Shown here: in pieces, positions 2,500 to 44,682 of the stretch
How the letters are laid out: every line of letters starts with the position of its first letter
Numbering within the stretch: position 1 is the stretch's first letter
Origin: a virus
Lineage: Duplodnaviria; Heunggongvirae; Uroviricota; Caudoviricetes
Reading direction: 5' to 3' (one strand)
Length of the DNA stretch: 64,000 nt
Virus record (IMG/VR): IMGVR_UViG_3300045597_000172
Program-made: the position numbers and the translations under genes
Notes under the pieces: generated by a model
What the model was told of the DNA's origin: nothing
The model's input: only the letters and a program-made list of their open reading frames with translations
The model's database searches: none

Positions 2500-2572
2500 G
2501 TAAAATGTTGTCATGTCCCGTACAATATCACGCAAACCAAAAAAATTAATAATTAAAAAAAGGAGAATTTTT

Positions 2573-3880: not shown

Positions 3881-3951
3881 AAGCAAAAGCTGGTGCAAAT
3901 AAGGGTTCGATTCCCTTTTTTGCTATTAAATATTGAAAGGAATAATTGTCT

Positions 3952-4461
3952 ATGTTAATCTCAGAAAATTTGCTTATAACTCTTGAAAAAATTGCAAACA
4001 CAAGTTTGAAATACTCACTTGTAGCATCAGAAACAGAATATACTCGTGAAATCGAAAATTTATTACGTGTAAGACCAATTATTTATTATCGAAGAATCGG
4101 ACGAGTTGCTAGTCAATTTGGATGGGAAGAACCAAAAATTTGGAAAACTTTTGCCCAATCCAAAAAACTATCACTCACTAAAATCAAAACTTTTAAATTA
4201 CTATACGGAATTCATAAAAGTAAAAAATACGGAGTTGGATTTATAATTCCGTATGAAGAATCAATTAATTTACAAGAAATAAACGAAGAATTAACAAAAC
4301 TCTTCAAATCACACATAAAAAAACAAGTTAGAGAACAACCATTCAGATTATATGATGATCAAGAATCAAAAGCATTAGTAATAATCGAACCATATCAAAC
4401 TTCAAAAAAGGAGAATACAAATCATGCCAAAAGTAATCATGCAAAACCAAGCACCATTTGA
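3952..4461 (+). CDS. hypothetical protein between the MoxR-like and vWA genes
   Basis: ORF with gaaagga RBS. Track start 3946 is TTG; ATG at 3952 has better spacing. No motif recognised. Confidence 0.4.
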   Translation: MLISENLLITLEKIANTSLKYSLVASETEYTREIENLLRVRPIIYYRRIGRVASQFGWEEPKIWKTFAQSKKLSLTKIKTFKLLYGIHKSKKYGVGFIIPYEESINLQEINEELTKLFKSHIKKQVREQPFRLYDDQESKALVIIEPYQTSKKENTNHAKSNHAKPSTI

Positions 4462-27736: not shown

Positions 27737-28012
27737 ATCTCAGTACGAGGCGCAAAGATTGACGCTAAAAACAAAGAAATTTGTTATATCTGATAACCGA
27801 TTGTGAATTGGTTCAACACCAATACAGAAGTTGGAGCTTAGAATCGGTTAACTTATAAAGTTTGAATCCTTATCGTACTATTTCATGCGTGCATTAACTT
27901 GCCAACCATAATTGGTTGCCGTCGCATAGAACTGCACCGACGTCAGTACAGCGTCGTAAAATAAATTAAGCAACACTCCTACAAGGAAATATTGTGCAGG
28001 TATTTCCATAAT

Positions 28013-28084
28013 TGTCCAATAGTTCAGTGGTAGAATATCTGACTGTTAATCAGAGGGTCGTAGGTTCGAATCCTACTTGGACAG
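28013..28084 (+). tRNA. tRNA-Asn (anticodon GTT)
   Basis: Acceptor tgtccaa/ttggaca. D-arm gttc-agtggta-gaat. Anticodon arm tctga-ctGTTaa-tcaga. T-arm gtagg-ttcgaat-cctac. Confidence 0.75.
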
Positions 28085-28303
28085 TAGATGCTACTAAACA
28101 AAGGCATTGCGCTAATTGCGAAAACCAAATAACATTGTTTACTAACGGTGTAACTAAGCTGGGCTAAATGCATCAAAACGATGCATAAATTATGAGATAT
28201 AAATTAAACGCTGGATTGCAACCAGTTGCTCATAATACCAATATTAAAAATGGTACCATTCTTAATATTAGTAGTTAGGTTCGATTCCTAAACGCTGTTA
28301 TTT

Positions 28304-28369
28304 CGTGATTGTAGCTCAAGACAAGAGTCATCGTTGTGACGAGATATTGGTGCAAATCCAATCAATCAC
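28304..28369 (+). ncRNA. degenerate tRNA-like element (66 nt) with T-loop UGCAAAU
   Basis: Acceptor gtgattg/caatcac (7/7). D-arm-like gctc-aagacaa-gagt. T-arm attgg-tgcaaat-ccaat. Anticodon arm truncated. Confidence 0.3.
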
Positions 28370-28405
28370 ATCATAAAATTCAAAATTGGAAAGGAAGATG
28401 TAAAA

Positions 28406-28669
28406 ATGGAATACCGAGTACCCGTTGCATATGGCTCATACGGAATTGTAAAAGTTAATGCTAAAAACAAGCAAGAACTAATCGAAAAATTATCATCTCA
28501 AGAGTTTATTGCTGAAATGCCATTACCTGACAATCCTGAATATCTCGATGACTCATTCGAAATCGATGTAGATGGTTTAGAATTTGAAGAACAACACGAC
28601 AAAAACGGAAACGCTGTCACCCTAGCATTATCTCATAACGAAATTAAAAAAATAAGAAATCCAGAATAA
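28406..28669 (+). CDS. hypothetical protein
   Basis: RBS ggaaaggaagatgtaaaa-ATG. 87 aa. Confidence 0.4.
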   Translation: MEYRVPVAYGSYGIVKVNAKNKQELIEKLSSQEFIAEMPLPDNPEYLDDSFEIDVDGLEFEEQHDKNGNAVTLALSHNEIKKIRNPE

Positions 28670-29138
28670 AACATTGTCCGCAACGACAATCAGCATTCAT
28701 TAAACTACGTGGTGGAGATGGCGTAGAGTAAAACTCACGTCCAAGAAAAAATACAACATGCTTACATAATGTTGTTGTAAAACAGATATTAAACAAAAAA
28801 TAAATTCAAAGGATGTGATGATCGTGCATAGAAGCCGTTTGCTTCACCGTCCGCGCGACGTTATGATTGAAAATATCAATTCATAAAAAAACAATGCTGC
28901 ATATACTATAAAACATAATTGGTGCGTGGGAAGTTGAAATACTTCTATATCGTTAGTTGCTAAAACCGGCTAATGACGAATTAGAATAGGCAAGTTCCGT
29001 TAAATGTACGCCAACCTAGATCTATGTACGTAAAAGCATAATTGATCGCATAGGAAAGACAGCCAATTTAACTTAAAAAGTCAGCACTAGACAAAAAGCC
29101 GTATCGAAGAACGCGTAATGACGTAATCATTACAAAAG

Positions 29139-29166
29139 TTGACAACCAAAGCCAACATGCTAACAT
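29139..29166 (+). promoter_or_regulatory. candidate sigma-A-type promoter upstream of tRNA-Asn (TTGACA-N16-TAACAT)
   Basis: -35 box ttgaca at 29139-29144, 16-nt spacer, -10 box taacat at 29161-29166. tRNA starts at 29184. Confidence 0.3.
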
Positions 29167-29183
29167 AACGTGTGTTAGTTCAT

Positions 29184-29255
29184 TGCTCAGTAGTTCAGTG
29201 GTAGAATAATTGACTGTTAATCAAGAGGTCGTAGGTTCGAATCCTACCTGAGCAG
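29184..29255 (+). tRNA. tRNA-Asn (anticodon GTT), third copy
   Basis: Acceptor tgctcag/ctgagca. D-arm gttc-agtggta-gaat. Anticodon arm attga-ctGTTaa-tcaag (A-G at the stem base). T-arm gtagg-ttcgaat-cctac. Confidence 0.7.
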
Positions 29256-29533
29256 TTTAAAAAACTATGGAAAGCAAACCATTTAAACTCGGTTATTGAT
29301 TACTGTAGGTCAACAATTTTGTACTATATGCATCAAAGACCCACCGTGCAAAATCCAGCACAAACGAGTCTGAGACATCATTTATTCCATTGATATGTTA
29401 GTCCAACTGACAATTCCGGAAACGGACTAAAATCCGTTGTAGATTAGAATCGTTATTGGATGAGATTACGAAACCGGTCCAATGAATAATGTATCAAGAT
29501 GGTAACAAGGAATAAATACATCAAACAGACGGT

Positions 29534-29605
29534 ACATCTGTAAGCTTACTGGTGAACTATTGGTCTCCAAAACCAAAATTGTTGGTTCGAATCCAACCAG
29601 ATGTA
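29534..29605 (+). tRNA. tRNA-Trp (anticodon CCA)
   Basis: Acceptor acatctg/cagatgt. Anticodon arm ttggt-ctCCAaa-accaa. T-arm gttgg-ttcgaat-ccaac. D-arm imperfect but same architecture as the second Trp gene at 44559. Confidence 0.6.
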
Positions 29606-29766
29606 TAAATCAAATGGTTATATCAATCGTTTGATTCTAGTACCAAAGTCAGCAATAGACTATAACAGCCGTAAAAATAGACGCATACTAACGTAATTAC
29701 TGTATAAAAATCAAACGAAGCATAGTAATTTGATGTGTTATTAAGGTGTAGGATAACATTTATTTC

Positions 29767-30092
29767 GGGCTTGTTTTGGATTCGACAGGGCATTAACGCT
29801 TTAATCTCGTCAACCAGTTAAATATAACTGCAAAAGAAAACACTTTAGTTGCTGCCTAGTTTAACCACTAAATAGCAACACCTCAACCCACTGGCAAAGC
29901 CGTGATAACCAGTGGTTTCAAACACGGATAAGTTAATTATGTTCCATTAACATAATTAATCGAAAACTAAAATGGTTAATGAATGTTTGTCATTAGCAAA
30001 ACTCATTATAAAAAAAATAATTAATGACTATGACGTAAGAATGATTACGGTAAGTGATGTCTTGGACGCGGGTTCGATCCCCGCCAAGTCCA
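29767..30092 (+). ncRNA. ssrA: tmRNA (SsrA), about 326 nt, predicted tag (A)AKENTLVAA
   Basis: 5' end GGGCUUGUUUUGGAUUCGACAGGG (tmRNA hallmark GGAUUCGACAGGG). 3' tRNA-like domain gcggg-ttcgatc-cccgc plus acceptor caagtcc pairing with 5' gggcttg, including a G3-U70 wobble (Ala identity element). Conserved UUAAAUAUAACU precedes resume codon GCA at 29830. Frame GCA AAA GAA AAC ACT TTA GTT GCT GCC TAG ends at 29859. Confidence 0.7.
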
Positions 30093-30284
30093 TAAATCAA
30101 AAAAAAATCGTCAAAAATATCTTGACCAAACTTATATGTTAACATATAAGAGTAGTAGGACCGCATACGCGGGATCCTGAGTACAACTTAGTCTAAAGAT
30201 ACCAAGTTGGAATCAAGCAGAGTCAGCTGCTAAGTCAGACAATTTGAACTACTAATTTTACGATATTTATTAATATCGTATTTC

Positions 30285-30363
30285 GGACTCGAAATCAACA
30301 ACCCTAGGAACGTTGATTCCATGAATAGCTGTTAGCCAGATGGTTTGAATCCATCCGAGTCCA
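30285..30363 (+). ncRNA. degenerate tRNA-like element (79 nt)
   Basis: Acceptor ggactcg/cgagtcc (7/7). T-arm gatgg-tttgaat-ccatc. Middle has a tcaac/gttga hairpin with a 12-nt loop but no anticodon arm. Confidence 0.3.
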
Positions 30364-30394
30364 TTGCACCAAATAAAATAAGAAAGCTGGAAAT

Positions 30395-30955
30395 ATGATG
30401 ACCGATAACATTAAAAAGATTCCACAAATTCCATTGTTACACGATATTCCCTTCAATCAAGAAGACAAAGATCTAATCGTTCAACTATCATTACAAGGTG
30501 TAATTGCATCACTCCACAATGACCCAAAATACGGTTTGTTTTTATCAATCAAGAAACCTATTCGCGGCATGTTGTCAGTACAAATTCTCATCGAAAAAGC
30601 AACTCATGGAAATCTCAAAAAAAGTATTCTTGATAGTTGCAAAAATGCACCTGAACAATTATCAAAAATGCGAGATGTGAAATATTTGGATAGTTTAATT
30701 AATAACATCGAAAACTTCCATTTCATTCGCAAATATGACGAACCTTATTTTAAAGAAAACATTCAGCCATTACTAAACAATCACGCTGAGACAGAAAAAA
30801 TAGATAATAAAATTAATCAATACGAATCTGACACTGGCAAAAAAATTGATCTTACCAAACCTGATTTTCAAAAACGTTTAAACGAAATCCGAAAGATACA
30901 ACGACGAAAAATTCATTTTCAATGTAATCTTATTCGCATTGCTAACAGTATCTAA
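30395..30955 (+). CDS. hypothetical protein
   Basis: RBS aagaaagctggaaat-ATG. 186 aa. Confidence 0.45.
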   Translation: MMTDNIKKIPQIPLLHDIPFNQEDKDLIVQLSLQGVIASLHNDPKYGLFLSIKKPIRGMLSVQILIEKATHGNLKKSILDSCKNAPEQLSKMRDVKYLDSLINNIENFHFIRKYDEPYFKENIQPLLNNHAETEKIDNKINQYESDTGKKIDLTKPDFQKRLNEIRKIQRRKIHFQCNLIRIANSI

Positions 30956-30986
30956 AATTAATCACGGTAATCTATTACCGTGTTAC

Positions 30987-31059
30987 GCAGTTTTAGCTCA
31001 GTAGGTAGAGCATCTGTCTTGTAAACAGAAGGTCACAAGTTCGAGCCTTGTAAACTGCA
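30987..31059 (+). tRNA. tRNA-Thr (anticodon TGT)
   Basis: Acceptor gcagttt/aaactgc. D-arm gctc-agtaggta-gagc. Anticodon arm tctgt-ctTGTaa-acaga. T-arm acaag-ttcgagc-cttgt. Confidence 0.75.
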
Positions 31060-31140
31060 TTGCGGTTAATCCGCAATCTAATTGTTTTCTTCAATAGTAA
31101 ATTATTCCTTTTCCGATATGGTAAATCCATATCGTTTTAT

Positions 31141-31227
31141 GGACAGTTGGCCGAGTCTGGTTTATGACGCTGGCTTTGAACACCAGTTGTGAGCAATCAC
31201 ACACAGGTTCGAATCCTGTACTGTCCG
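31141..31227 (+). tRNA. tRNA-Ser (anticodon TGA), class II
   Basis: Acceptor ggacagt/actgtcc. Anticodon arm ctggc-ttTGAac-accag. Long variable arm with tgtga/tcaca stem. T-arm acagg-ttcgaat-cctgt. Confidence 0.6.
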
Positions 31228-31242
31228 TCCAAATATCTTAAA

Positions 31243-33062: not shown

Positions 33063-36000
33063 ATGAATAAAAAAATAATAGCGAAAAAAGTTTCAATTAC
33101 TATTCTAATTACAATCCTTGGATTAACAAACATGTCAGATGTTTTTTTATTAAAAAATAACATTATACACGCAGATCCTACCAATTGGACACAAACTGCA
33201 AACAACGTTAACGCAACAAACAAAAATCTTATAGACAATGCTGTAACAAATTCAAAAAAGACAGAAAATACAAATTTAATTCAGGATCAAACGCAAACAA
33301 TCGATGCAACATCCTCGAATTTAAATGACATTGAAAATCAAGTCAAAAATAGCAACAACAACATGATATCGGAAATAAACAGCGATACCGAAAAACAAAA
33401 AGCTATTAACGAAAAAAATGAACAAATTGAAAAAGACAACAATTCAAAAAAACAATCATATGAAGCAGCATTAACAAATTATAATAACGAATTAGCTGCA
33501 TATAAAAAAAATCTACAAGATCAAGGATTAAATGATGGTATTGATCCTTCCACATTCAATCAACAACTCCAATTTACTCAAGATGACAGAAACAATACAG
33601 AACCAAAAGTGAGTGTTCAATTGTTATCAGGTGCAGTTAATTACAAAAAATTAATAAGTAATGGATACGGAACTAGTAATTTTCCATGGTCAAATTCACA
33701 TGAAGCTGAACAGATATATGCAAAGAATTCAAACGCTAAATCTATTAACGGTGATTTTGCAAAAATCACATGGGATGGTGTATATGGATATTCATATAAT
33801 GGTATACAAATTAAAAAAATTGTAGAAACATTCAGTGACTGGAAATTAGCTGCTACTAAACATGTAAGTGGCCCTCGTGGAATAACCGTGTATCAAAATC
33901 CAAATGAAAATTTTTGGTATTTAAACGGATCCGACACGACAACAAACTATCAATTTTACGATGAAAACGGGAATTTAATAAATTTCGAACCAAATAACGC
34001 ATACGTCGCGGTAGGTAGTTTGGACAGAGCATATTACGCATACGATTTTGGAAGTCACACATACAACACCAATATCGTAGCCAACCAAATCGAAGAAGTT
34101 CAATTATTGTCAGCCGGAACCGGAATACAATTAACAAACAGTACTATTAGCAATCACGATGGCAACAATATGTTTTCTGATAAAGATAATGTACAAATCC
34201 AATATCAAAATGGTGGATTAACAGAATATGGTGCATTTAACGTTACAGGTGGAAATATTAAACTACATTACCACACAAATATGACAAACGAAGCACCAAA
34301 CGCATCAACATTAACTTCATTTGCAACTATATTTCCATTAAGCTCTGCGCCAAAGAAACCAACAAGTCCAACATACACACCAACAGATCCGACAGTGACA
34401 GATATTCATTATCATTACACAAACATAAATTTAAAATTAACAGTCACAACAAATTATCTTCAAAACAATGATTCAAAAAAACAAGAAGATGGCTCAAAAT
34501 TAGCTGACTCTACAACACAATCCGGAGATAGTAACTCAAACTATTCAACTAGTAAAAAAGATTTCACTGGTTGGCATCTAACTTCTACGCCAACAAATGC
34601 ATCCGGAACATTAACAAATTATGACGTGACAGTTAACTATATTTACGACCGTGATCCCGAAACTGTAAAAGTAAAATACGTAGATGAAGAAACCGGAAAT
34701 GATATTAGCAATCCAACAACATTAAATGGATATTACGGATTATCATATACATCATCTCCGAAATCAATTACTGGTTGGACCTTATCTAAAACACCAAATA
34801 ATACATCTGGAACATATTCAAAGAGTAATGCCGATATCATCTATCAATACAAGAGAAATACCGAAACAGTAACCGCAAATTATCTTGCCAATAATGATAT
34901 TAATAAAAATGAATTTGGACAAAAATTAGCGGATTCAGTAACACAAAAAGGTGGTTTCGGAACAAACTACACAACATCTGCAAAAGATATTTTAGGATGG
35001 CATTTACTTGGAATTCCAACCAATCAAAATGGAACCTACCAAGAAAGTAACCCCGACGTCAACTACATTTACGATCGTGATCCTGAAACGGTAACCGTAA
35101 AATATGTAGACACTAAAGGAAACACGTTAGCAAAAAGCAATACCTTAATTGGATACTACGGATTGGATTATCAAACATATCCTGCAAGTATTGATAACTA
35201 CCACCTAACTGCAATTCCTACAAATGCAACCGGTAAATATTCAAATGGTCCAATTACCGTAACTTACATTTATGACGTTGATCCCGACATCAAAGAAGGA
35301 CTTTCTAACGATGCAATAAACAGTAAAAATTACGATACTGCAATTTCTAACACATCACAAAACGTACAATACAATAATGTTTACCACTATGTTGATAAAA
35401 TCACAGTCGGTGGATCCATGAACCTTACCGATCTAAAAATCCAAACAAATCTACCAAGTGATGTTAATCCAATCGTTAACGGTGGCGACATCAATAATCA
35501 AAACATTAAAGTTTATGTTCGTGAAGATGATGGTTCATTAACAAATGTTACAAGTCAAGGAACACTTGCGTATCAAGTAAACAACAAAGATGTAACTAGC
35601 GATAATAACAAAAATGTCGCAATTGATACTGATAAAACAAGAACTCTGACATGGACACCAAAAACACCATCTGCATTCACTGGAAAACAAATCATTACTG
35701 ATATTCCAGTAAATCTTCAACCAGATGCTGCAAAACTAAAAAGTTATAAATCTGACAACGGTATTAATATCAAACACACCACTCAATTAATTGAATCAAA
35801 TGATTTACCAAGTTCTGGTGAAATAAAAACTGATACCACATCACAAAAAACGTATACCAGCAACAATACAACAATTCAATTACCAAACATCTATACGTTA
35901 AAATTTTACAAATCAGAATTTCAAACCAACGATACAATTAATGGAAAAGTTTGGTTGAAACTATATCCAAACCTTGTCGGACAAGAAGATACAGGTAATA

Positions 36001-37334
36001 AAAAACTAGCAACACTAACAGTTAACGGTACAACTCAAGATGTACAAAGCAGTTTATCAACTAGCAACAAAGAAATTTTAACAAACGTAAATAGTTCAAA
36101 AACTGCTAATAATTCAGATCCAACATTTGATATTAACCTAAAAAGTAATCAAACAAACAGCAGTCAAAATCCAGTTGTTTTAACAAAGAGTCTTATTAAA
36201 GATCAAAGTAACAACAACTCCATTTCAAAAACAACTTACGTTTCAAACGATGATCTTTACACTAGCAAAAACACTGCTGCTCAATACAAAAAAGAAAACA
36301 CCTCAAGTACTGTTGGATCCGCACCTGAAGAAGTTGAAACTTATTACGACCAAGATTTAACAAATCCACAAACAGAAACGACTAACGAAACCTCTCCTAC
36401 TTACGTCAAACTCATGGAATACATGAACGCAAACTATAGTAAGACGGTTAGTGCAAAAGCTGGTTATGGTATTAAAAATGATTTGATTTTAAACTACTAT
36501 GGCCGTCATTTAACAAATCAGTCAACTTCTGATACTGATTTTGAAAAAAATAATCTTGCAACGATCTTTAGTACGGATACGGATTTAACCACTGCCAACG
36601 GAAAAACTTCAAGTCAAATTAACGATAATCAACATGAATTACTTGATTATAATGCCGAAGTCAATTCCGTTAACGACTTAATCAACAATGTCAACAATCT
36701 AACTACGAATGCACAAAAGACAAATTATCTTCAATCGAAACTCGGTACAAACGCCGGAAATTCATTTGTCTATAATCTAGCCGGAAAAGAAAACACACTT
36801 GATCAAGCCGTATCAGACATCAACAAGTCAACTGCCTATGTTAACCTTGATGATAAGACAAAATCATTCATCAATACCGTTGACACCGACACAAATTCAA
36901 AACCGATTGCGCCAAAACTATATAGTATGAATTACCGTTTCAACAAACGACTATTATCATACGAAAATAGTAACAGTAACGGTGTTGAATATTATGACCG
37001 AAACAGTTCACATGTAGCTCAAAACGATGACCAACTAATGAATAAAACCGATCCAATCAGTAGCACAACTGATGGCGGATACAAATTTTATACCAACCAA
37101 TGGTTAAAAATTGGAACATATCCGACACACTACACAAGTAACGAATTTGGAACTAACAATTTCAAATTAAAAGCTGATCGCGATCTAAACATTTATGGCC
37201 GACGTTATCTAACACGTTCTGATACTAAAAATGATGGAGATAAATATGATGACCTATCAATTCAACCTGTCATTTCGAAAAATAGTAACGGAACCGGAAC
37301 TACTATGCCTGACGGTGAATGGAGTAATAAATAA
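33063..37334 (+). CDS. large secreted adhesin-like protein with four MucBP-like repeats (1423 aa); possible phage receptor-binding/adhesion protein or host-surface adhesin
   Basis: Signal peptide MNKKIIAKKVSITILITILGLTNMSDVFLL. Four alternating repeats of about 70 aa between roughly nt 34380 and 35290: TV(K/T)VKYVD..GN.L.......GYYGL.Y and ...NY.T......GWHL...PTN..GT......V.YIYDRDPE. Asn/Thr/Ser-rich. No LPXTG at the C-terminus. Confidence 0.65.
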   Translation: MNKKIIAKKVSITILITILGLTNMSDVFLLKNNIIHADPTNWTQTANNVNATNKNLIDNAVTNSKKTENTNLIQDQTQTIDATSSNLNDIENQVKNSNNNMISEINSDTEKQKAINEKNEQIEKDNNSKKQSYEAALTNYNNELAAYKKNLQDQGLNDGIDPSTFNQQLQFTQDDRNNTEPKVSVQLLSGAVNYKKLISNGYGTSNFPWSNSHEAEQIYAKNSNAKSINGDFAKITWDGVYGYSYNGIQIKKIVETFSDWKLAATKHVSGPRGITVYQNPNENFWYLNGSDTTTNYQFYDENGNLINFEPNNAYVAVGSLDRAYYAYDFGSHTYNTNIVANQIEEVQLLSAGTGIQLTNSTISNHDGNNMFSDKDNVQIQYQNGGLTEYGAFNVTGGNIKLHYHTNMTNEAPNASTLTSFATIFPLSSAPKKPTSPTYTPTDPTVTDIHYHYTNINLKLTVTTNYLQNNDSKKQEDGSKLADSTTQSGDSNSNYSTSKKDFTGWHLTSTPTNASGTLTNYDVTVNYIYDRDPETVKVKYVDEETGNDISNPTTLNGYYGLSYTSSPKSITGWTLSKTPNNTSGTYSKSNADIIYQYKRNTETVTANYLANNDINKNEFGQKLADSVTQKGGFGTNYTTSAKDILGWHLLGIPTNQNGTYQESNPDVNYIYDRDPETVTVKYVDTKGNTLAKSNTLIGYYGLDYQTYPASIDNYHLTAIPTNATGKYSNGPITVTYIYDVDPDIKEGLSNDAINSKNYDTAISNTSQNVQYNNVYHYVDKITVGGSMNLTDLKIQTNLPSDVNPIVNGGDINNQNIKVYVREDDGSLTNVTSQGTLAYQVNNKDVTSDNNKNVAIDTDKTRTLTWTPKTPSAFTGKQIITDIPVNLQPDAAKLKSYKSDNGINIKHTTQLIESNDLPSSGEIKTDTTSQKTYTSNNTTIQLPNIYTLKFYKSEFQTNDTINGKVWLKLYPNLVGQEDTGNKKLATLTVNGTTQDVQSSLSTSNKEILTNVNSSKTANNSDPTFDINLKSNQTNSSQNPVVLTKSLIKDQSNNNSISKTTYVSNDDLYTSKNTAAQYKKENTSSTVGSAPEEVETYYDQDLTNPQTETTNETSPTYVKLMEYMNANYSKTVSAKAGYGIKNDLILNYYGRHLTNQSTSDTDFEKNNLATIFSTDTDLTTANGKTSSQINDNQHELLDYNAEVNSVNDLINNVNNLTTNAQKTNYLQSKLGTNAGNSFVYNLAGKENTLDQAVSDINKSTAYVNLDDKTKSFINTVDTDTNSKPIAPKLYSMNYRFNKRLLSYENSNSNGVEYYDRNSSHVAQNDDQLMNKTDPISSTTDGGYKFYTNQWLKIGTYPTHYTSNEFGTNNFKLKADRDLNIYGRRYLTRSDTKNDGDKYDDLSIQPVISKNSNGTGTTMPDGEWSNK

Positions 37335-37340
37335 CACAAA

Positions 37341-37370
37341 AAACCCGCATTTAACGATGCGGGTTTTTTT
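37341..37370 (+). terminator. rho-independent terminator
   Basis: cccgcat-ttaacg-atgcggg followed by ttttttt. Confidence 0.7.
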
Positions 37371-37515: not shown

Positions 37516-37698
37516 ATGCCAGAAGCAATGGGTAATATCTCTTGGTCGACATACGCATTAGTAATTGCTGCCGTTATCTTAGGAGTTGTGCTAATTTCGT
37601 TCCCAGAAATTACAAAATCAATCATGTCATTCTTACAGACAATGATCACTACCGCGGGCGGTAAAATTACCGACACGTTAGCAAAATCAGCATCATAA
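37516..37698 (+). CDS. small hydrophobic protein (60 aa); candidate Flp-type major pilin
   Basis: RBS aaaggaagtgtttcaaat-ATG. MPEAMG-NISWSTYALVIAAVILGVVLI resembles the Flp G/xxxxEYxLIAALIAV pattern with TY in place of EY. Has its own downstream hairpin and T-tract. Precedes a Tad-like operon. Confidence 0.4.
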   Translation: MPEAMGNISWSTYALVIAAVILGVVLISFPEITKSIMSFLQTMITTAGGKITDTLAKSAS

Positions 37699-37797
37699 TA
37701 GCAATAATACAAGTCGATAACGCCGGGAAGATTGAAAAATCGACCCGGTTTTCTTTTTAAAATAAGTAGTAACTCTACAATGTAAGGATGTGAATAC

Positions 37798-38244
37798 ATG
37801 CTATCCGGAAAACTTTATACACTAGGTTTAGTTATGTTTTCAGTCTTTTGCAGTCTTCTAATTGCAATCTATTCAATCATGGAATTCACACAACAAAGAC
37901 TCCAAGGTTCACTTCAAACCGTTACCGAAGAAGCTATCTATGACGCACGGTACGATAACGCACGAAGCACTAATAAAGTTTTTGTACTAGATAAAACAGT
38001 CTTTGAACAAGACCTGATCCATAGCAATATCAAAAGTATTTCCAACGATTCAAGTTTAAAATTAGAATACATGCACGATGATAGTACCGCGGCAAAATCA
38101 CTAAACTTAACAGATTCCCGCATCCCTATCAAAGCAGTTAGAGTAACCGTAGTTGATGGAACAAACGATCACTTAAACAAAACAATTACTTACATCATCA
38201 ACTCAAATTCAAAAACTAAAGACGATGACTTATCAAATAACTAA
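37798..38244 (+). CDS. N-terminally membrane-anchored protein (148 aa); candidate TadE/F-like pseudopilin
   Basis: N-terminal TM helix LYTLGLVMFSVFCSLLIAIYSIM followed by a soluble domain. First gene of the operon containing the secretion ATPase. Confidence 0.35.
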   Translation: MLSGKLYTLGLVMFSVFCSLLIAIYSIMEFTQQRLQGSLQTVTEEAIYDARYDNARSTNKVFVLDKTVFEQDLIHSNIKSISNDSSLKLEYMHDDSTAAKSLNLTDSRIPIKAVRVTVVDGTNDHLNKTITYIINSNSKTKDDDLSNN

Positions 38245-38260
38245 TAAAAAAGGTGAACTT

Positions 38261-39691
38261 ATGGAAAATACAGAAAAAACAAACACTCCAATTACCAAAA
38301 CAGAAAATACCGCAACAAAATTTCACCCCTTTCACGACGACGGTGAAACTGATAAAATCTACAAAATCATCAGTGAACTTTTTGCAGACGAACTAACTGA
38401 AGCACTCTTACCAAAAGGCGATACAAAAAAGATTGTTGAAATTCTACAAACTCGAAAAGAATTTGAAGACTGCACAACTCACGACAATCCGCAACGGGCA
38501 CGTGAGATTGCAACTGATATTGCTGGTTTAGGTGTAATTGAAACTATCATTAAAAAATACAATCATGAAAATATCCAAGATATTGGTTACAACAGTAATC
38601 ACATTTTGACCATTGATACAGCCGAACATAAATTCGTATATACCGAAAAAAACTTTGATCCGCATATCAATACGCAATACATGTTAGGTTTGATTAATCG
38701 GTTAGCGCAGCATGAAGCCCCTTCCGGAAAACAATTCGTAGCTGACTCTCCGATTTATAATGGATCTGCTCATATTGGTGACGGTGACGACCGTATTTAT
38801 CTCCGTATTTCAGCAACACATACAAGTCTCGCACCAACTGGACCAACATTAAGTATACGTGTCTCAAAATCGCACCTAGCATTGACTAAAGAGAACTTCA
38901 ATAACATTGCACCCATGATGATCTACAATCTGTTACACGTCTTTATCGCGGCACACACGAGTATTGTGATTTCTGCCGAAACTGGAGCCGGAAAAACAGA
39001 ACTTCAAAAACTGTTACTTGGATTTGTACCATTTGATGAACGAATTGTTTTAATTGAAGATACAAACGAAATGCATTTGACCACCCTTTATCCAAAAAAA
39101 GATATTTTTTCATGGGTAAGTGATCCGTTACTAACTATAAATCATAAACCTGTTAACACCACTACATTAATCGAACAATCACTTCGTACAAACCCAAAAT
39201 GGTTAATCGTTGCAGAATCTCGTGGTGATGAAGCATACGAATTAATCAGTGGTGCTAGATCAGGTCACCCAATCATCACAACGCTACATGCTACATCAAA
39301 CGCAGCAGTACCCGGACGATTAATTGGGATGTCAGCAATGGGCTACAAATTCAACGAAGAAATGTTAGACCGTGATATTTTAAACTATATCAATATCGGA
39401 ATTCATTTAAACTTAAAATCCAATTATCATGGTCGAAAATTACGGTACATTGACCAAATCGTTGAATACGTACCACGCTCCGAAAAATACCCAGATGGAA
39501 TCAATATACTATTTCAACAACACATCGACAAAAATGGTTACCGCACATACTGGATAAACGAAGCCACTGACAAACTAAAAGATCATATTTACCGTGAACT
39601 TGATGAAAAGCTGAAATATCCAACAATTCAAAAAGACTCACCAAAAAAAGAAAAACTCTTTGAATTCAAGTCTGAAACGGGTGAACAATAA
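38261..39691 (+). CDS. VirB11/CpaF/TadA-family secretion (type IV pilus/T4SS-type) ATPase
   Basis: Walker A ISAETGAGKTELQKL. Asp box RIVLIEDTNEMH. Walker B/Glu box WLIVAESRGDEAYEL. His box SGHPIITTLHATS. ATG at 38261 preferred over track start 38225 because of the aaaaaggtgaactt RBS. Confidence 0.7.
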   Translation: MENTEKTNTPITKTENTATKFHPFHDDGETDKIYKIISELFADELTEALLPKGDTKKIVEILQTRKEFEDCTTHDNPQRAREIATDIAGLGVIETIIKKYNHENIQDIGYNSNHILTIDTAEHKFVYTEKNFDPHINTQYMLGLINRLAQHEAPSGKQFVADSPIYNGSAHIGDGDDRIYLRISATHTSLAPTGPTLSIRVSKSHLALTKENFNNIAPMMIYNLLHVFIAAHTSIVISAETGAGKTELQKLLLGFVPFDERIVLIEDTNEMHLTTLYPKKDIFSWVSDPLLTINHKPVNTTTLIEQSLRTNPKWLIVAESRGDEAYELISGARSGHPIITTLHATSNAAVPGRLIGMSAMGYKFNEEMLDRDILNYINIGIHLNLKSNYHGRKLRYIDQIVEYVPRSEKYPDGINILFQQHIDKNGYRTYWINEATDKLKDHIYRELDEKLKYPTIQKDSPKKEKLFEFKSETGEQ

Positions 39692-40515
39692 TGGCAAAAA
39701 ACAAAAAGATTAAAACTCGAAAAAAAAGATACACCATCAAAGACCTTGATGCGATGGAAGAACTTTACGGTTCACATTTTACAAAAACCACACTTGCACG
39801 AAATTTTCTAACGTACAGTATTGCATCAATTGCTTTCTCCTACGTCCTATATGCAAGTATTCCAATCGTCATCATTTACGTAATACTAAGTTGCCTGTAC
39901 GTTTACTACAACATTATTCCAAACAATGTACGGATGAATTATGAAATGAAAGCTCATGCCGAACGAAATCGTAGTATTAATATCGTAACCCAAAGTTTAT
40001 CGTCTGGACATACATCAATTAAAAACGCCATCAGCATGGCAATTAAAAACTCTAACGGTGAATTTCGCAAAGATCTTAAATTACTATATGCCAAGATCTT
40101 GAGTGATACCACATTCGAAGCAACTCATGACGCATTTACAAAACTAAAAACTAAATATCCTGACGATATCTACTTTGGACTATTCCTAGAACAACTTGAA
40201 GTTGGACTTAACAAATCTCATCCAGATCTAAGAACCCTCATGATCGTGAGAAAATCACACAATTACGAATACAATCGAATTAAAGTCTTTCGTTCCGCAA
40301 AAAGACAAGCGATGCGTGACATGATTAAAATGTTAAGCTTAACATTCGTCGTTTGCTGTACCGTTGCATTTATGTTTGGATATCAAAAGTTTTTAACTAT
40401 GTACGCTCATAACTTAGTCGGAATGGCAATTTCAACATTATTCATGTTCGTACTATTCATGATTATCAAAAAATTCATGAAAATGTATCAAGACACTGCC
40501 ATTAATTCGATCTAA
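39691..40515 (+). CDS. TadB/TadC-like (GspF-family) inner-membrane platform protein
   Basis: 274 aa. TM helices near the N-terminus (IASIAFSYVLYASIPIVIIYVILSCLYVYY) and C-terminus (LSLTFVVCCTVAFMFGY, VGMAISTLFMFVLFMII) with a cytoplasmic domain between. Translationally coupled (ATAATGG) to the ATPase. Confidence 0.5.
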   Translation: MAKNKKIKTRKKRYTIKDLDAMEELYGSHFTKTTLARNFLTYSIASIAFSYVLYASIPIVIIYVILSCLYVYYNIIPNNVRMNYEMKAHAERNRSINIVTQSLSSGHTSIKNAISMAIKNSNGEFRKDLKLLYAKILSDTTFEATHDAFTKLKTKYPDDIYFGLFLEQLEVGLNKSHPDLRTLMIVRKSHNYEYNRIKVFRSAKRQAMRDMIKMLSLTFVVCCTVAFMFGYQKFLTMYAHNLVGMAISTLFMFVLFMIIKKFMKMYQDTAINSI

Positions 40516-40532
40516 GAAAGGAGCACACTTAA

Positions 40533-41387
40533 ATGTTTAACAAACAAAAATCAAAAAACACTACTGAAAAAAAGAGAACAACCAACGTTACCGCGGAAGA
40601 CTTTGATGTTCAAACCATGCGATTAAATCTTGTTCGTGAAGAATTAACATTTCCAGCCAGTTTAATTGGTGATGGCGAACTAAGACTCATGCTCAAAATG
40701 GATACTAAAACACGAGTAATCAAAGGTATCATGGGTAACAGATTCCGTGTCGCAATCGCGGCCGTACTATTTGGACTAATTTTTGGAATGATTTCCAAGA
40801 AGTATTTTATTTTAATGTTGTTCCTAGGAATTTTGATAGCTGCCGTTTCGTGGAATGATAGTATTAAAAAAACAAAAAAATACTACCAAATCTATTCGAT
40901 AAATCGTCAAGTTGCATTTACTGAATTTACTAAAATTGCCGGCGCACTTCTTCCTGAATTAGATAACGGAAAAAACCTCCTATCAATCTTTGAAGAAGTC
41001 AGCAAACATATGGACAATGAAAACGATCGTAAAGCATTGAAACAGTTAATGACACACATGCAGAGTAATAACGAAAGCAGTCAGCCATTTCTTGATTTCG
41101 CCCATCAATTTTCCACCAGTGACCGTGCAGAACTAACCATGCTATACATGCACCAAATGTACCTTGGAAACACGGATACAAGCGGAATCCAATCACTGAT
41201 CAACGATTCAAACGAAGATTACCAAGCACAAACTGAAAAAATAATTACGACCAAAATAAAAAGATTTTACAGCACCGCTACAAAGATCGCAATGAGTGTT
41301 TCAATCGTCGTTTTCGGATATTTCGGCATTTACATTGTCAACATGTTCCAGCACATCTTTAAAATCATGTCCAACGTTAAATTCTAA
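40533..41387 (+). CDS. second TadB/TadC-like membrane platform protein
   Basis: 284 aa with the same TM/cytoplasmic/TM architecture (VAIAAVLFGLIFGMI, ILMLFLGILIAAVSW, IAMSVSIVVFGYFGIYIV). RBS gaaaggagcacactta-ATG. Confidence 0.5.
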   Translation: MFNKQKSKNTTEKKRTTNVTAEDFDVQTMRLNLVREELTFPASLIGDGELRLMLKMDTKTRVIKGIMGNRFRVAIAAVLFGLIFGMISKKYFILMLFLGILIAAVSWNDSIKKTKKYYQIYSINRQVAFTEFTKIAGALLPELDNGKNLLSIFEEVSKHMDNENDRKALKQLMTHMQSNNESSQPFLDFAHQFSTSDRAELTMLYMHQMYLGNTDTSGIQSLINDSNEDYQAQTEKIITTKIKRFYSTATKIAMSVSIVVFGYFGIYIVNMFQHIFKIMSNVKF

Positions 41388-41407
41388 AATAACCGAGGTG
41401 AATAATT

Positions 41408-41776
41408 ATGGACGACGTCAGTATTGGACAACTCATGCATTACCTAACGCTTGGATTATGGATTAGCCTCATTCTATTCATTCTTTGTTATCCAATGTAT
41501 TCAGTTGCACAATTAGTATCATTTCAACAATCATCAGCAACAATTCTATCACGATACGGTGGCGTAACCGCCGATGCCAAAAAAACAGTTAATACCATTG
41601 GGGAAACATATTACAGTAATAAATTCAGTATCGTAGATACCCCAAGCGACAAAACAAGCAATTACGGAGGAAACATTCCATACACAATTCATGTAAGAAT
41701 CCCCGTAATCAGTAACTTAGTCGAAACAAATATCCAAGCCAACACTGAATCAGACGTACGTAACGAAAACAATTAA
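41408..41776 (+). CDS. N-terminally anchored small protein (122 aa); pseudopilin-like, paralog of 41962..42336
   Basis: N-terminal TM helix LTLGLWISLILFILCYPMY. Shares a C-terminal motif Y-[TI]-I-x-V-[RH]-IP-[VL]-I with the 41962 product. Confidence 0.4.
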   Translation: MDDVSIGQLMHYLTLGLWISLILFILCYPMYSVAQLVSFQQSSATILSRYGGVTADAKKTVNTIGETYYSNKFSIVDTPSDKTSNYGGNIPYTIHVRIPVISNLVETNIQANTESDVRNENN

Positions 41777-41796
41777 AAAAAGAAAGATGTGATCAT

Positions 41797-41946
41797 ATGA
41801 AACGCGGTTTTTCAGAATTAGTATTCACAGTTCCCGGAGCGGCATTTATCGCAATGATAATCATTATAATCGCGGCATTTATTTCTCCCAATATGCTTCA
41901 AACAATGTGGTTACTTCTCGTGAATAACAATGGAATCACATTCTAA
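41797..41946 (+). CDS. 49-aa prepilin-like mini-protein (class III signal-like KRGF/SE motif)
   Basis: Not in the ORF track. MKRGFSELVFTVPGAAFIAMIIIIIAAFISPNML. The K-R-G-F-S-E pattern resembles the (K/R)G-F-T-L-[IV]-E prepilin peptidase site, followed by a hydrophobic helix. Confidence 0.4.
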   Translation: MKRGFSELVFTVPGAAFIAMIIIIIAAFISPNMLQTMWLLLVNNNGITF

Positions 41947-41961
41947 GGCGGTGATTAAATA

Positions 41962-42336
41962 ATGGCCCATTTTCCATTTGAAGAACTAATTCGTTGGTTA
42001 TTCATGAGTCTATGTATTGCGTTTTTTATAAATATTTGTGCAATCAGTTTTAACGTAATGCAAATCAATAACTACGAAAAAAATATCGACAATTACATTG
42101 AGAACAACGGAAAACTAGACAGTGCATATATTAACAACAATATTTCACCCAAATTCAACAATTATTTTACCGTAAAGCCCAAATCTACAAACGATGAACA
42201 ACCTCACGACTTTGGTAAAAGTGTTGATTACATCATAACTGTTCATATCCCGCTCATTGCATTTGCAAGCAAAAATGAATCACTTGGAATCAACACCACA
42301 TATTCTGGTTTCAGTACTTCAAAAATTTCAAACTAA
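41962..42336 (+). CDS. N-terminally anchored small protein (124 aa); pseudopilin-like paralog
   Basis: N-terminal TM helix LIRWLFMSLCIAFFINICAISF. C-terminal YIITVHIPLIAF motif shared with 41408. Confidence 0.4.
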   Translation: MAHFPFEELIRWLFMSLCIAFFINICAISFNVMQINNYEKNIDNYIENNGKLDSAYINNNISPKFNNYFTVKPKSTNDEQPHDFGKSVDYIITVHIPLIAFASKNESLGINTTYSGFSTSKISN

Positions 42337-42337
42337 A

Positions 42338-42359
42338 AGACACCTCGGTGTCTTTTTTA
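42338..42359 (+). terminator. rho-independent terminator
   Basis: agacac-ctcg-gtgtct followed by tttttt. Confidence 0.65.
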
Positions 42360-42400
42360 TTAACCCTTAAAATATAACGACCCGTTTATATTCCAAATAA

Positions 42401-42422
42401 AAGCGCCAAAGGCGCTTTTTTT
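42401..42422 (+). terminator. rho-independent terminator, GGCGCC-stem family variant
   Basis: aagcgcc-aaa-ggcgctt followed by ttttttt. Confidence 0.6.
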
Positions 42423-42460
42423 ATAAAACGTTCGTACAAAAAATCAAAGGAAGCGATAAT

Positions 42461-44321: not shown

Positions 44322-44385
44322 TAAAATCAGAAATTGATACTTGCAACATTTACCTCAATCTGATATTATATAACCAAGCAGTTTT

Positions 44386-44459
44386 CAGGATATAGCTAAG
44401 TTTGGTACAGCGCCGCATTTGGGATGCGGAGGTCACAGGTTCAAATCCTGTTATCCTGA
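44386..44459 (+). tRNA. tRNA-Pro (anticodon TGG)
   Basis: Acceptor caggata/tatcctg. Anticodon arm ccgca-ttTGGga-tgcgg. T-arm acagg-ttcaaat-cctgt. Confidence 0.7.
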
Positions 44460-44465
44460 TTTTCT

Positions 44466-44538
44466 GGGACATTAGCGCAATTGGGAGAGCATCTGCTTTG
44501 CAAGCAGAAGGTTGACGGTTCAAATCCATCATGTTCCA
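44466..44538 (+). tRNA. tRNA-Ala (anticodon TGC) with G3-U70
   Basis: Acceptor gggacat/atgttcc with the G3-U70 wobble. D-arm gcgc-aattggga-gagc. Anticodon arm tctgc-ttTGCaa-gcaga. T-arm gacgg-ttcaaat-ccatc. Confidence 0.75.
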
Positions 44539-44558
44539 TAGTTACAAATTTTTAAAAT

Positions 44559-44630
44559 GTGCTGTTACGCTCAATGGTAAACTACCGGTCTCCAAAACCG
44601 GTCATCTTGGTTCGAATCCAAGACAGCATG
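44559..44630 (+). tRNA. tRNA-Trp (anticodon CCA), second copy
   Basis: Acceptor gtgctgt/acagcat. Anticodon arm ccggt-ctCCAaa-accgg. T-arm cttgg-ttcgaat-ccaag. Same architecture as 29534..29605. Confidence 0.6.
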
Positions 44631-44682
44631 TCAAAAAACCACAAATAGAAACCAAGGTGGTATACACGTCAATCAATTTTTC

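Follow-up and report, generated by a model that had tools for sequence, protein, structure and literature searches.

A Tad-like gene block and its MucBP adhesin gene as the sequence counterpart of pLS20 conjugation genes 34-41, carried by a possible giant plasmid

Judged by sequence homology and gene order, the block described here, taken together with the adhesin gene upstream of it, corresponds to genes 34-41 in the conjugation operon of the pLS20 family. It belongs to a known, uncharacterised kind of module. All of its genes except the 49-aa ORF are homologous to, and syntenic with, genes of pLS20, Listeria pLM5578 and a Paraclostridium plasmid. In pLS20, a plasmid from Bacillus subtilis, the order is the tie adhesin, p36, the 'putative VirB11' p37, and p38 to p41. 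The view of the initial annotation that such a machine is essentially undescribed has to be abandoned: pLS20 genes 34-41 are already published (PMC8557374, PMC8092201). What the block encodes is probably a type IV filament assembly machine of Gram-positive mobile elements, Tad-like but non-canonical, that would display an adhesin. This reading is derived from the synteny with pLS20, the T2SSF folds of the platform proteins, the CpaF-like ATPase, the p41 homology, the hairpin layout and the adhesin domain. The features are listed in Table 1; the window is the entire stretch of 64,000 nucleotides that was analysed.

Table 1. Coordinates of the adhesin gene, the operon and its flanking signals in the window
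Feature	Position	Strand	Evidence or remark
Secreted adhesin, 1423 aa	33063-37334	+	Pfam MucBP 6.5e-47
Strong bidirectional terminator, adhesin gene/module boundary	37338-37369	.	Folding -18.2 kcal/mol, z -7.6; also terminator scan
Operon	37516-42336	+	Tightly packed, strong terminators on either side
60-aa ORF	37516-37698	+	ATG preceded by RBS AAAGGAAG
Stem-loop and U-tract, attenuator or terminator, 3' of 60-aa gene	37722-37759	+	Folding
148-aa ORF	37798-38244	+	
ATPase ORF	38225/38261-39691	+	Longest ORF from 38225
Platform protein 1, 274 aa	39691-40515	+	ATG overlaps ATPase stop (TAATG)
Platform protein 2, 284 aa	40533-41387	+	
122-aa protein	41408-41776	+	
49-aa protein	41797-41946	+	
124-aa protein	41962-42336	+	
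Two tandem intrinsic terminators at operon end	42335-42423	+	Folding; U-run behind each

The order adhesin, p36, ATPase, p38, p39, p40 repeats in isolate-genome loci from Bacillus, Enterococcus, Vagococcus, Paraclostridium, Amphibacillus and others, and the module occurs in conjugation operons across Bacillota. At least 10 isolate loci have VirD4 4-5 kb downstream of it. All characterised relatives of the module reside within conjugative-plasmid operons, and its sole relative in IMG/VR is a pLS20-like conjugation operon.

The co-directional arrangement of a small hydrophobic gene, an ATPase, platform and anchored proteins was described correctly at the outset; every ORF listed is present. Segment prediction also places the hydrophobic stretches where they had been reported: a single N-terminal one each in the 148-, 122- and 124-aa proteins, three apiece in the 274- and 284-aa proteins, and a single central one in the 60-aa protein. 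For the ATPase the start at 38261, chosen in the initial annotation, is favoured by the RBS AAAGGTGA 5 nt upstream. The ATPase gene is coupled in translation to the genes of two membrane proteins, which are paralogous and have one predicted cytoplasmic domain of PilC/GspF fold each, i.e., a TadB/TadC arrangement. These genes are flanked by those of three bitopic extracytoplasmic proteins (p36-/p40-like) and of two tiny single-helix proteins.

A generic terminator scan listed the boundary hairpin alone, on the - strand. The other three hairpins failed the scan criteria, so the terminator calls for them rest on folding: the stem-loop 37722-37749 with UUUUCUUUUU (-15.4 kcal/mol, z -2.7) and the closing terminators 42335-42356 (-11.2 kcal/mol, z -5.6) and 42399-42419 (-11.9 kcal/mol, z -3.9). 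Folding thereby supports the tandem terminators said to close the block. A small gene with its own downstream hairpin and T-tract, also noted earlier, is a layout conserved in relatives: an equivalent hairpin lies 3' of the small gene in five of the five relatives tested, with a U-tract visible in three.

The ATPase is a member of the CpaF/VirB11 superfamily, as had been proposed, and not of the FtsK, HerA or Zot type. Its best solved relatives in the PDB are CpaF (1.7e-18) and Brucella VirB11 (6.8e-18); the best alignment is with CpaF and spans both domains. The motifs reported as intact are all readable in the translation, i.e., Walker A (ETGAGKTE), Asp box (RIVLIEDTNEM), Walker B (WLIVAESRGDEA) and His box (SGHPIITTLHA). 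Pfam T2SSE is matched with an E of 1.8e-18; the NCBIfam matches to TIGR03819 (6e-30) and TIGR02788 (1.8e-26) are both under the family cut-offs. The protein is a homologue of pLS20 p37 and shares 38-42% identity with the ATPases of pLS20 and of the Paraclostridium and Listeria plasmids.

For both membrane proteins, structure prediction gives the PilC/GspF (T2SSF) fold with high confidence. Platform protein 1 is the homologue of pLS20 p38 and has a single cytoplasmic T2SSF-fold domain between TM helices; platform protein 2 is the homologue of p39. The two families are distant paralogues, as in TadB/TadC. Of the earlier assignment as TadB/TadC-like platforms the predicted fold stands in both proteins, but the window proteins themselves do not reach Pfam T2SSF, which counts against a filament machine.

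We regard it as unlikely that the ATPase is a true VirB11 and that the block serves as an accessory of a Gram-positive T4SS conjugation channel which forms no filament; its membrane proteins would then be inner-membrane subunits specific to the T4SS. This corresponds to the current annotation of pLS20, where gene 37 is a 'putative VirB11' and genes 36-47 are placed with the T4SS genes (PMC8557374). The module does lie within conjugation operons that have VirD4 and VirB6 further downstream, and the C-terminal domain of the ATPase matches Brucella VirB11 nearly as well as CpaF; the TIGR02788 match points in the same direction. However, T2SSF-fold platforms in characterised systems partner motors of the PilB/GspE/TadA/FlaI type and are not known to partner VirB11. 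The VirB11 equivalog yields 92.9 bits versus a cut-off of 250, and the module of the window clade occurs without pLS20-type T4SS genes or a relaxase in the window and its 10-kb flanks. A VirB11 accessory also leaves unexplained the layout of an abundant subunit, i.e., a small gene with its own terminator and tandem copies.

The 60-aa protein is the homologue of pLS20 p41 (HMM 37.2 bits, E 5.5e-11, the best among 359 ORFs). The HMM was seeded with isolate-plasmid p41 homologues only, and 2000 shuffles peaked at 9.0 bits. A polar N-terminus of 9 residues precedes a hydrophobic helix of ~22 residues, and an FPE motif is present. In relatives the p41-type small subunit occurs in 2-4 tandem copies, and the related N-termini (MLDQNTDR...) are all conserved. 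The protein is a candidate major subunit. Its initial designation as Flp-pilin-like, and with it a TadE family assignment, did not survive: PF04964 and PF07811 give no match among the window proteins and 31 relatives. The absence of Pfam matches to Flp_Fap, TadE and N_methyl in this set counts against the filament machine, as does the absence of a conserved Gly-1 class III signal from the p36, p40 and p41 families.

The 148-aa protein is the N-terminally anchored, DUF5411-like homologue of pLS20 p36, with its TM at residues 4-22. By tblastn it matches the p36 position of relative loci L030 and L035 (about 5e-5) and L017 (7e-12); pLS20 p36 itself matches DUF5411 at 1.4e-5, under the cut-off. 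The N-anchored 122-aa protein finds p40 homologues by blastp (2e-7 to 5e-5), has the conserved motifs R-x-GG-(L/V)-T and YG, and is a candidate minor subunit. The 124-aa protein, also N-anchored, is a second p40 paralogue (blastp 1e-6 with Paraclostridium p40, 0.004 with pLS20 p40). Against the p40-family HMM they reach E 1e-35 and 3e-39, respectively, each being itself in the seed. That the two are paralogues, as suggested earlier, is borne out despite a mutual identity of 19% only, since each alone matches plasmid p40 homologues. The 49-aa hydrophobic protein with two hydrophobic windows has no family match in Pfam or NCBIfam. It had been called prepilin-like: the N-terminus MKRG|FSELV indeed resembles a class III (prepilin) signal, but the KRGF motif is missing from the small genes at the same position in relatives.

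The adhesin begins with a Sec-type signal or anchor, carries four MucBP repeats and lacks an LPXTG motif. Over its last ~110 aa (36942-37331) it is homologous to the C-terminal end of TIE, the adhesin of pLS20; matches to TIE-type adhesins encoded on pLS20 and on Listeria and Paraclostridium plasmids range from 4e-8 to 8e-7. A jackhmmer family comprises 23 adhesins of 768-1668 aa with the common motif DGGxKFYxPIW...LGxY, and the domain is common to TED/CnaB and MucBP adhesins. An adhesin with this domain and without a sortase signal adjoins the module in pLS20, in two more plasmids and in the window; of the 22 isolate loci, 21 have one close to the module, and the remaining locus is cut by its contig end. 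Within the window clade the domain adjoins the module in one of three other loci (L017/L018), and it was not found in the accessible parts of L007-L009 or L010-L012/L020. This repeated adjacency suggests that the machine displays or anchors the adhesin, which we newly infer from gene neighbourhood alone. Efficient conjugation in liquid requires TIE, in which LPXTG, lipobox and wall-binding module are all missing and whose mode of surface retention was left open (PMC8092201).

A filament machine might then operate as follows. The ATPase would dock onto the heteromeric platform and drive the tiny hydrophobic subunit out of the membrane. With the p36/p40-like minor subunits as primers, the subunit would assemble into a short fibre or pseudopilus that spans the wall. 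The fibre could carry, anchor or push out the Sec-exported adhesin, which lacks a sortase signal, via its conserved C-terminal domain. For the window the outcome would be MucBP-mediated cell-cell or cell-mucus attachment. Against this stands that no filament is reported for any member of the module family and that, according to the pLS20 literature, Gram-positive conjugative elements form no pili (PMC8557374).

It is very improbable that the block is instead a type II-secretion-like exporter, in which a pseudopilus piston drives the adhesin in its folded state, perhaps along with other substrates, across the thick wall and releases it instead of anchoring it. The core parts do match a T2SS or Com machine, and a Clostridia operon of CpaF, PilC/GspF, DUF5411 and an internalin-like protein was classed as a 'postulated secretion-related system' (PMC9523054). 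In our comparison, pLS20 p36 resembles DUF5411. Yet the adhesin already has its own Sec-type signal, other candidate substrates linked to the module are absent, and a mating adhesin must remain on the donor because TIE acts in the donor (PMC8092201).

The window was initially taken for a phage-like genome with a phage-encoded filament machine, and we consider it improbable that a jumbo phage uses the machine for host-surface remodelling or as a new kind of virion or DNA-transfer device. Phage-like traits exist: the window has 18 tRNA genes and a tmRNA, all confirmed genes point in one direction, ORFans are numerous, RtcB, RNase H, UDG, NUDIX and a T4 30.3-like protein are encoded, known plasmids are not broadly similar, and the element reaches at least 237 kb. 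However, Pfam and PHROGs searches of the window and its 10-kb flanks (~84 kb) found no capsid, portal, terminase, tail or lysis cassette, and 50,697 phage records show no similarity apart from a nuclease. The source contig has no entry in IMG/VR. The window further has a ParM-like partition protein, RadC and a PrgA/Sec10 surface-exclusion protein which passes the NCBIfam cut-off. Window-clade relatives of the module adjoin RepA_N and MobL, or an integrase. MucBP domains and plasmid protein matches indicate Lactobacillales broadly. This tRNA-rich replicon resembles a giant plasmid more closely than a phage. By description, candidates are the Inocles, giant plasmid-like extrachromosomal elements of oral Streptococcus of 245-368 kb and about 32% GC (window about 34%), which share the size class, a replichore-like pattern of gene orientation and GC skew, and the presence of both tRNA genes and LPXTG surface proteins; all Inocles possess VirB4 and VirD4 (PMC12340149), which are not seen in the ~84 kb here.

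Like Tad systems, the block combines one ATPase of CpaF type with two separate platform proteins that have a single T2SSF domain each, with candidate subunits that are very small and hydrophobic (tandem in relatives) and with N-anchored accessory proteins. In contrast, it has no Flp G/XXXXEY motif, PF04964/PF07811 match, prepilin peptidase or TadZ and hence does not qualify as a canonical Tad system. Of the tight-adherence/type IVc designation the ATPase and platform types hold. The lack of prepilin peptidase, secretin and CpaE/TadZ, stated at the outset, is confirmed: Pfam gives no match to Peptidase_A24, secretin or TadZ/CpaE-type proteins in genes from about -10 kb to +74 kb, and the missing peptidase counts against a filament machine. 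N-termini in the block are acidic or polar (MLDQNTDR-type) rather than class III signals, and its sequences score below the curated thresholds for Tad and T2SSF.

SpoIIIAA/SpoIIIAB of the Bacillus sporulation feeding-tube channel likewise combine a T2SSE-family ATPase with a small GspF-fold membrane protein, and SpoIIIAB ranks among the top structural matches of both platform proteins. This T2SSE and T2SSF-like pair works without pilins, which again counts against a filament. It differs in being chromosomal and sporulation-specific, with one platform protein instead of two and without pilin-like small genes or an adhesin. The 'postulated secretion-related' operon of Roseburia, Ruminococcus and Eubacterium, a computational prediction only (Miller et al. 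2022, PMC9523054), is similar by description (8-9 genes including CpaF, PilC/GspF-like, DUF5411 and internalin-like proteins); its tie to the window genes is solely the sub-threshold DUF5411 match of p36.

The pLS20 operon differs in several respects. The window adhesin binds via MucBP repeats instead of TED/CnaB, the p40 gene is duplicated, and the ATPase has an N-terminal extension of ~85 aa. Unlike in pLS20 the small-subunit gene precedes p36, as in the Enterococcus, Vagococcus and B. cereus-group versions. VirD4, VirB4 and VirB6 are not near the window module (pLS20-type VirD4, VirB4, VirB6, VirB8 and relaxase were found neither in the window nor in its 10-kb flanks), and the host element is tRNA-rich and large, versus a plasmid of 50-90 kb. 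Nevertheless, gene families and order are the same: the ATPases are 38% identical, p36, p38, p39, p40 and p41 are homologous, and both adhesins share the C-terminal domain and have no sortase signal.

The block is a divergent new member of a known, uncharacterised gene module, i.e., genes 34-41 of the Bacillus subtilis plasmid pLS20. It is neither a phage invention nor a canonical Tad (tight adherence/type IVc pilus) system. Its core consists of a motor and a platform of the type IV filament type. All confirmed genes of the window are on the plus strand, the G+C content is about 34% and the GC skew is negative throughout. On translation the block held up as initially annotated, including its hydrophobic segments and ATPase motifs.

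Coordinates of the features discussed (window positions unless a locus is named)
Feature	Coordinates	Strand	Remarks
ParM/actin-like partition protein	824-2038		
MoxR-type AAA ATPase with VWA partner, then ClpB/ClpA-like double-AAA protein	2513-6130, 6145-8007		
795-aa protein	12990-15377		
1125-aa coiled-coil surface protein	19086-22463		
tRNA/tmRNA array	22540-31231, 44385-44632		18 tRNA genes and tmRNA, small ORFs between
tmRNA	29767-30092		tag AKENTLVAA
Adhesin	33063-37334		directly upstream of operon
Strong terminator	37338-37369		upstream limit of operon
60-aa hydrophobic ORF	37516-37698	+	good RBS
Stem-loop and U-tract	3' of 60-aa ORF		-15.4 kcal/mol (folding)
148-aa N-anchored protein		+	between 60-aa ORF and ATPase gene
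ATPase gene	start 38261	+	start supported by RBS
274-aa protein		+	ATG overlaps stop of ATPase gene
284-aa protein		+	after 274-aa gene
122-aa protein		+	first of three at operon end
49-aa protein	41797-41946	+	second of three
124-aa protein		+	third of three
Two tandem terminators	42335-42423		downstream limit of operon
Rce1/CAAX-type protease, window's element	L013 13252-14094		about 2.8 kb past right end of window
Rce1/CAAX-type protease, Listeria pLM5578	L003 12332-13033		
pLS20 p41 copies	L001 10094-10267, 10296-10439, 10466-10609		
Tandem paralogue run of a window-clade relative	L017 16541-20845, L018 13595-17615, L019 10891-14490		

When plasmid proteins were searched with the window ATPase, the best matches were from pLS20, a Paraclostridium plasmid and Listeria pLM5578 at 38-42% identity (E 1e-73 to 1e-88; 2e-77 for the pLS20 gene 37 product, p37, itself). 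Directly downstream the counterparts of p38 and p39 follow in the same order as in pLS20, and both are collinear from end to end (274-aa protein versus p38, E 3e-30; 284-aa protein versus p39, E 6e-17). The 122-aa and 124-aa proteins both match the p40 family, the former best in Listeria (2e-7; 5e-5 to pLS20 p40), the latter best in Paraclostridium (1e-6; 4e-3 to pLS20 p40). The 148-aa protein matches p36 of Enterococcus and Niallia at about 5e-5. With a p41 HMM trained on isolate plasmids alone and independent of the window, the 60-aa protein ranked at the top of 359 ORFs (37.2 bits, E 5.5e-11); 2000 shuffles scored at most 9.0 bits. The three plasmids share an annotated neighbourhood: a large 'thioester domain' adhesin, 1-3 small ORFs, a CpaF/VirB11 ATPase and, 3' of it, two hypothetical proteins of about 250-270 aa followed by proteins of about 120 and 47 aa. 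VirD4 is located a few kb downstream in pLS20 and in the Paraclostridium plasmid, and none is annotated in the Listeria stretch examined. At the nucleotide level, searches of phages and plasmids with the block and with window positions 1-25000 returned only a 97-nt match to the Listeria plasmid ATPase gene.

By the textbook account, conjugation in Gram-positive bacteria involves no pili and depends on wall-anchored adhesins instead. In pLS20 gene 34 encodes the adhesin TIE, gene 37 is a 'putative VirB11', genes 36 and 38-41 are listed as 'unknown', and Gram-positive conjugative elements are said to form no pili (PMC8557374). We found no paper which links the genes of the pLS20 module to Tad, CpaF, GspF, T2SSF or type IV pili. 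The nearest report is a computational one of a 'postulated secretion-related system' in Clostridia, comprising CpaF, PilC/GspF, DUF5411 and an internalin-like protein (PMC9523054). The matches of pLS20 p36 to DUF5411 and of p40 to DUF4320 are below threshold.

The window ATPase matches Pfam T2SSE at 1.8e-18. Among PDB structures Caulobacter CpaF is closest (1.7e-18, residues 88-395 aligned), followed by Brucella VirB11 (6.8e-18, C-terminal domain only) and then by archaeal GspE, HP0525 and FlaI. The top NCBIfam model is TIGR03819, 'TadA family conjugal transfer-associated ATPase' (6e-30), at 104.6 bits where the cut-off is 373. Because of these T2SSE, PDB and NCBIfam matches the protein is classified, as far as sequence similarity tells, as a secretion ATPase between CpaF and VirB11. 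The VirB11 equivalog model TIGR02788 matches at 1.8e-26, yet its 92.9 bits fall far below the cut-off of 249.95, and T4SS genes are not nearby. In the window, its 10-kb flanks and the loci of the window clade, tblastn yielded no match at E<=0.01 to pLS20-type VirD4, VirB6, VirB4, VirB8 or relaxase. FtsK, HerA or Zot identity is ruled out, as every ATPase family match is of the T2SSE type; the CpaF/VirB11 affiliation in the initial annotation was correct.

Neither the 274-aa nor the 284-aa membrane protein matches Pfam T2SSF. For this reason alignments of their families, with 71 and 69 members, respectively, were built and used for structure prediction, which resulted in models with mean pLDDT of 88.6 and 91.1. 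In a Foldseek comparison with the PDB the top matches of the 274-aa model were SpoIIIAB, EpsF (a GspF) and PilC. A p38-family HMM run against PDB sequences returned nothing meaningful; the T2SSF structures are out of reach by sequence alone. According to the models there are two separate platform proteins, each with one predicted T2SSF-fold domain and transmembrane helices on either side. This is the TadB/TadC arrangement. Thus, the proposal that these are T2SSF-like platform proteins is right at the fold level, in predicted structures, and fails as a direct Pfam match.

The situation is different for the pilins. The proteins of the window and 31 small proteins of its relatives show no match to Flp_Fap (PF04964), TadE/TadF (PF07811) or N_methyl, and the assignments of a Flp pilin and a TadE-like pseudopilin have to be given up. 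The aligned N-termini lack the G/XXXXEY processing motif of Flp, and in none of the families p36, p40 and p41 is a glycine conserved at a cleavage position. The 49-aa protein begins with MKRG|FSELV and carries a Glu at +3. This N-terminus does resemble a class III (prepilin) signal, as had been noticed, but relatives do not share the motif in their small genes at this position. The Pfam results for the stretch from about -10 to +74 kb include no prepilin peptidase (Peptidase_A24; TadV/CpaA) and no ParA-like TadZ/CpaE. The reported absence of both is correct within this range, and the suggested reliance on a host peptidase is a possibility. An Rce1/CAAX-type intramembrane protease is encoded downstream of the module in both the window's element and the Listeria plasmid; possibly it is a processing enzyme of the small subunits.

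Members of the p41 family are 47-80 aa long. Their polar N-terminus is strongly conserved and reads MLDQNTDR in most isolates and MPEAMGNIS in the window; they also possess a hydrophobic helix of about 22 residues and an FPE motif. Their genes are often in tandem with 2-4 copies. In pLS20 three are in tandem, two of them identical, where a RefSeq-derived table has just one. A strong stem-loop follows the small gene in all five relatives tested which have such a gene ahead of the p36-like gene, with a U-tract visible in three, and the window agrees with them. This is the layout of a candidate major subunit made in excess.

The adhesin of the window comprises 1423 aa with four MucBP repeats; it has no LPXTG and no Pfam Gram_pos_anchor match. 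It resembles pLS20 TIE solely over the last 110 or so residues (E 4e-8). In the fetched loci jackhmmer identified this C-terminal domain (DGGxKFYxPIW...LGxY...MY...ePv) in 23 adhesin-like proteins, which are 768-1668 aa long. Of 22 isolate loci, 21 encode the domain upstream of the module, and the remaining one is cut off by its contig end. The three plasmids, the window and a single window-clade relative likewise have it upstream. It was not detected in the accessible sequence of two window-clade groups (L007-L009 and L010-L012/L020). TIE of pLS20 has no lipobox or known wall-binding module; its authors ask what keeps it attached to the cell, and their suspicion falls on the C-terminal region (PMC8092201). 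Gene neighbourhood suggests that the Tad-like machine may hold or present the adhesin via this C-terminal domain.

A p38-profile scan of species-representative genomes yielded 22 loci, in Bacillus, Peribacillus, Niallia, Pontibacillus, Terribacillus, Amphibacillus, Halolactibacillus, Enterococcus, Vagococcus, Paraclostridium, Terrisporobacter and Eubacterium. Gene order is identical in all 22 isolate loci, and in at least 10 VirD4 is positioned 4-5 kb downstream. The window's own clade (ATPases 42-94% identical, about 35 clusters) was encountered in metagenomes only. Neighbours of its modules are RepA_N and MobL, or an integrase and Muc_B2/AgI-II adhesins, or a large lysozyme/CHAP protein. In one such relative at least 10 tandem paralogous genes for proteins of 125-138 aa without a Pfam match lie downstream of the module. 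A 409-aa gene upstream of the window was considered as a RepA_N initiator, such as is found beside a relative's module, and rejected for lack of similarity. The sole IMG/VR contig with a relative of the module (UViG_3300012252_000022) carries a conjugation operon that resembles the one in pLS20 and includes VirD4 and VirB6. Two INPHARED records, OR846771.1 and OR848116.1 ('Listeria phage LM 4-11-1 / 4-14-1'), contain a plasmid-type module under a phage label. All three are probably plasmid sequences filed as viral.

Is the host element of the window a phage? Huge phages and giant extrachromosomal elements typically have arrays of tRNA and tmRNA genes, which are rare on plasmids. Among some 60 proteins of the window and its flanks, about 84 kb of the contig of 237 kb, neither Pfam nor PHROGs identified capsid, portal, terminase or tail genes, and the notion of a phage-encoded pilus in a phage-like genome is not supported. 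A weak PHROG 'tape measure' match (3.4e-4) falls into the 1125-aa surface protein and is probably a coiled-coil artefact. This protein has an LPXTG anchor and a SEC10/PrgA surface-exclusion domain (91 bits versus a cut-off of 70), a function of the conjugative-plasmid type. Other products encoded in the window and its 10-kb flanks are a ParM-like partition protein, a MoxR/VWA pair, a ClpB-like ATPase, UvrD helicase, RadC, flotillin, SNF2, RNase H, UDG, RtcB, MgsA, NUDIX, a T4 30.3-like protein and a nuclease. The 795-aa protein contains a Walker A motif and matches D5_N weakly (E 0.015). It may represent a primase-helicase of the D5 type; among the recorded contigs no other has an exact copy. 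No syntenic relative of the window exists in the phage and plasmid collections; a 2964-aa concatenate of seven window proteins retrieved only single genes from plasmids and phages (nuclease, DUF2325, VWA). The designation 'phage-like' is unproven. In our judgement a giant plasmid-like element is more likely than a phage.

The window's proteins are carried by a 236,971-bp JGI contig from sample 3300044212, which IMG/VR does not contain. They do not occur together on any one of the shorter indexed contigs; JGI Ga0455833_0234 covers the window from about 14.2 kb onward, and ParM is encoded on separate contigs in Logan. The element is therefore represented by several strains or assemblies.

A more far-reaching scenario, which we consider rather improbable, would be that a giant tRNA/tmRNA element captured the adhesin and Tad-like module of a conjugative plasmid and uses them without a linked T4SS. 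The module would then build a new class of Gram-positive surface fibres from subunits of about 50 aa with a non-class-III signal. The fibre would display a sortase-independent adhesin via the C-terminal docking domain and drive host aggregation, colonisation or spread of the element itself. Under such a capture an Inocle-like megaplasmid, a jumbo phage and a phage-plasmid are all conceivable identities of the element.

The 'unknown' pLS20 genes 36 and 38-41 can now be read together with gene 37 as the core of a type IV filament machine. Motor and TadB/TadC-like platform pair constitute that core, and herein lies the value of the structural assignment of p38 and p39. The adhesin C-terminal domain goes with the machine in nearly all loci examined, whatever binding domains the adhesin has. 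How TIE, an essential mating adhesin without a sortase signal, stays on the cell thus becomes a directly testable question. Further, the window shows that the module need not have a T4SS next to it: here it sits on an unclassified, tRNA-rich element of very large size, together with a mucus-binding adhesin. A phage-encoded pilus is not what these data demonstrate.

Within the window and 10-kb flanks the module stands without pLS20-type T4SS genes, whereas that of pLS20 is surrounded by a T4SS conjugation operon. In general properties only, the window's element agrees with the recently described Inocles, which are giant and plasmid-like and come from oral streptococci (PMC12340149). The defining Tad pilin set fails in the window: the tests for Flp, TadE, a conserved class III signal, the peptidase and TadZ were negative. 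The module is Tad-like in its motor, to which VirB11 is almost as close as CpaF, and in the predicted fold of its platform.
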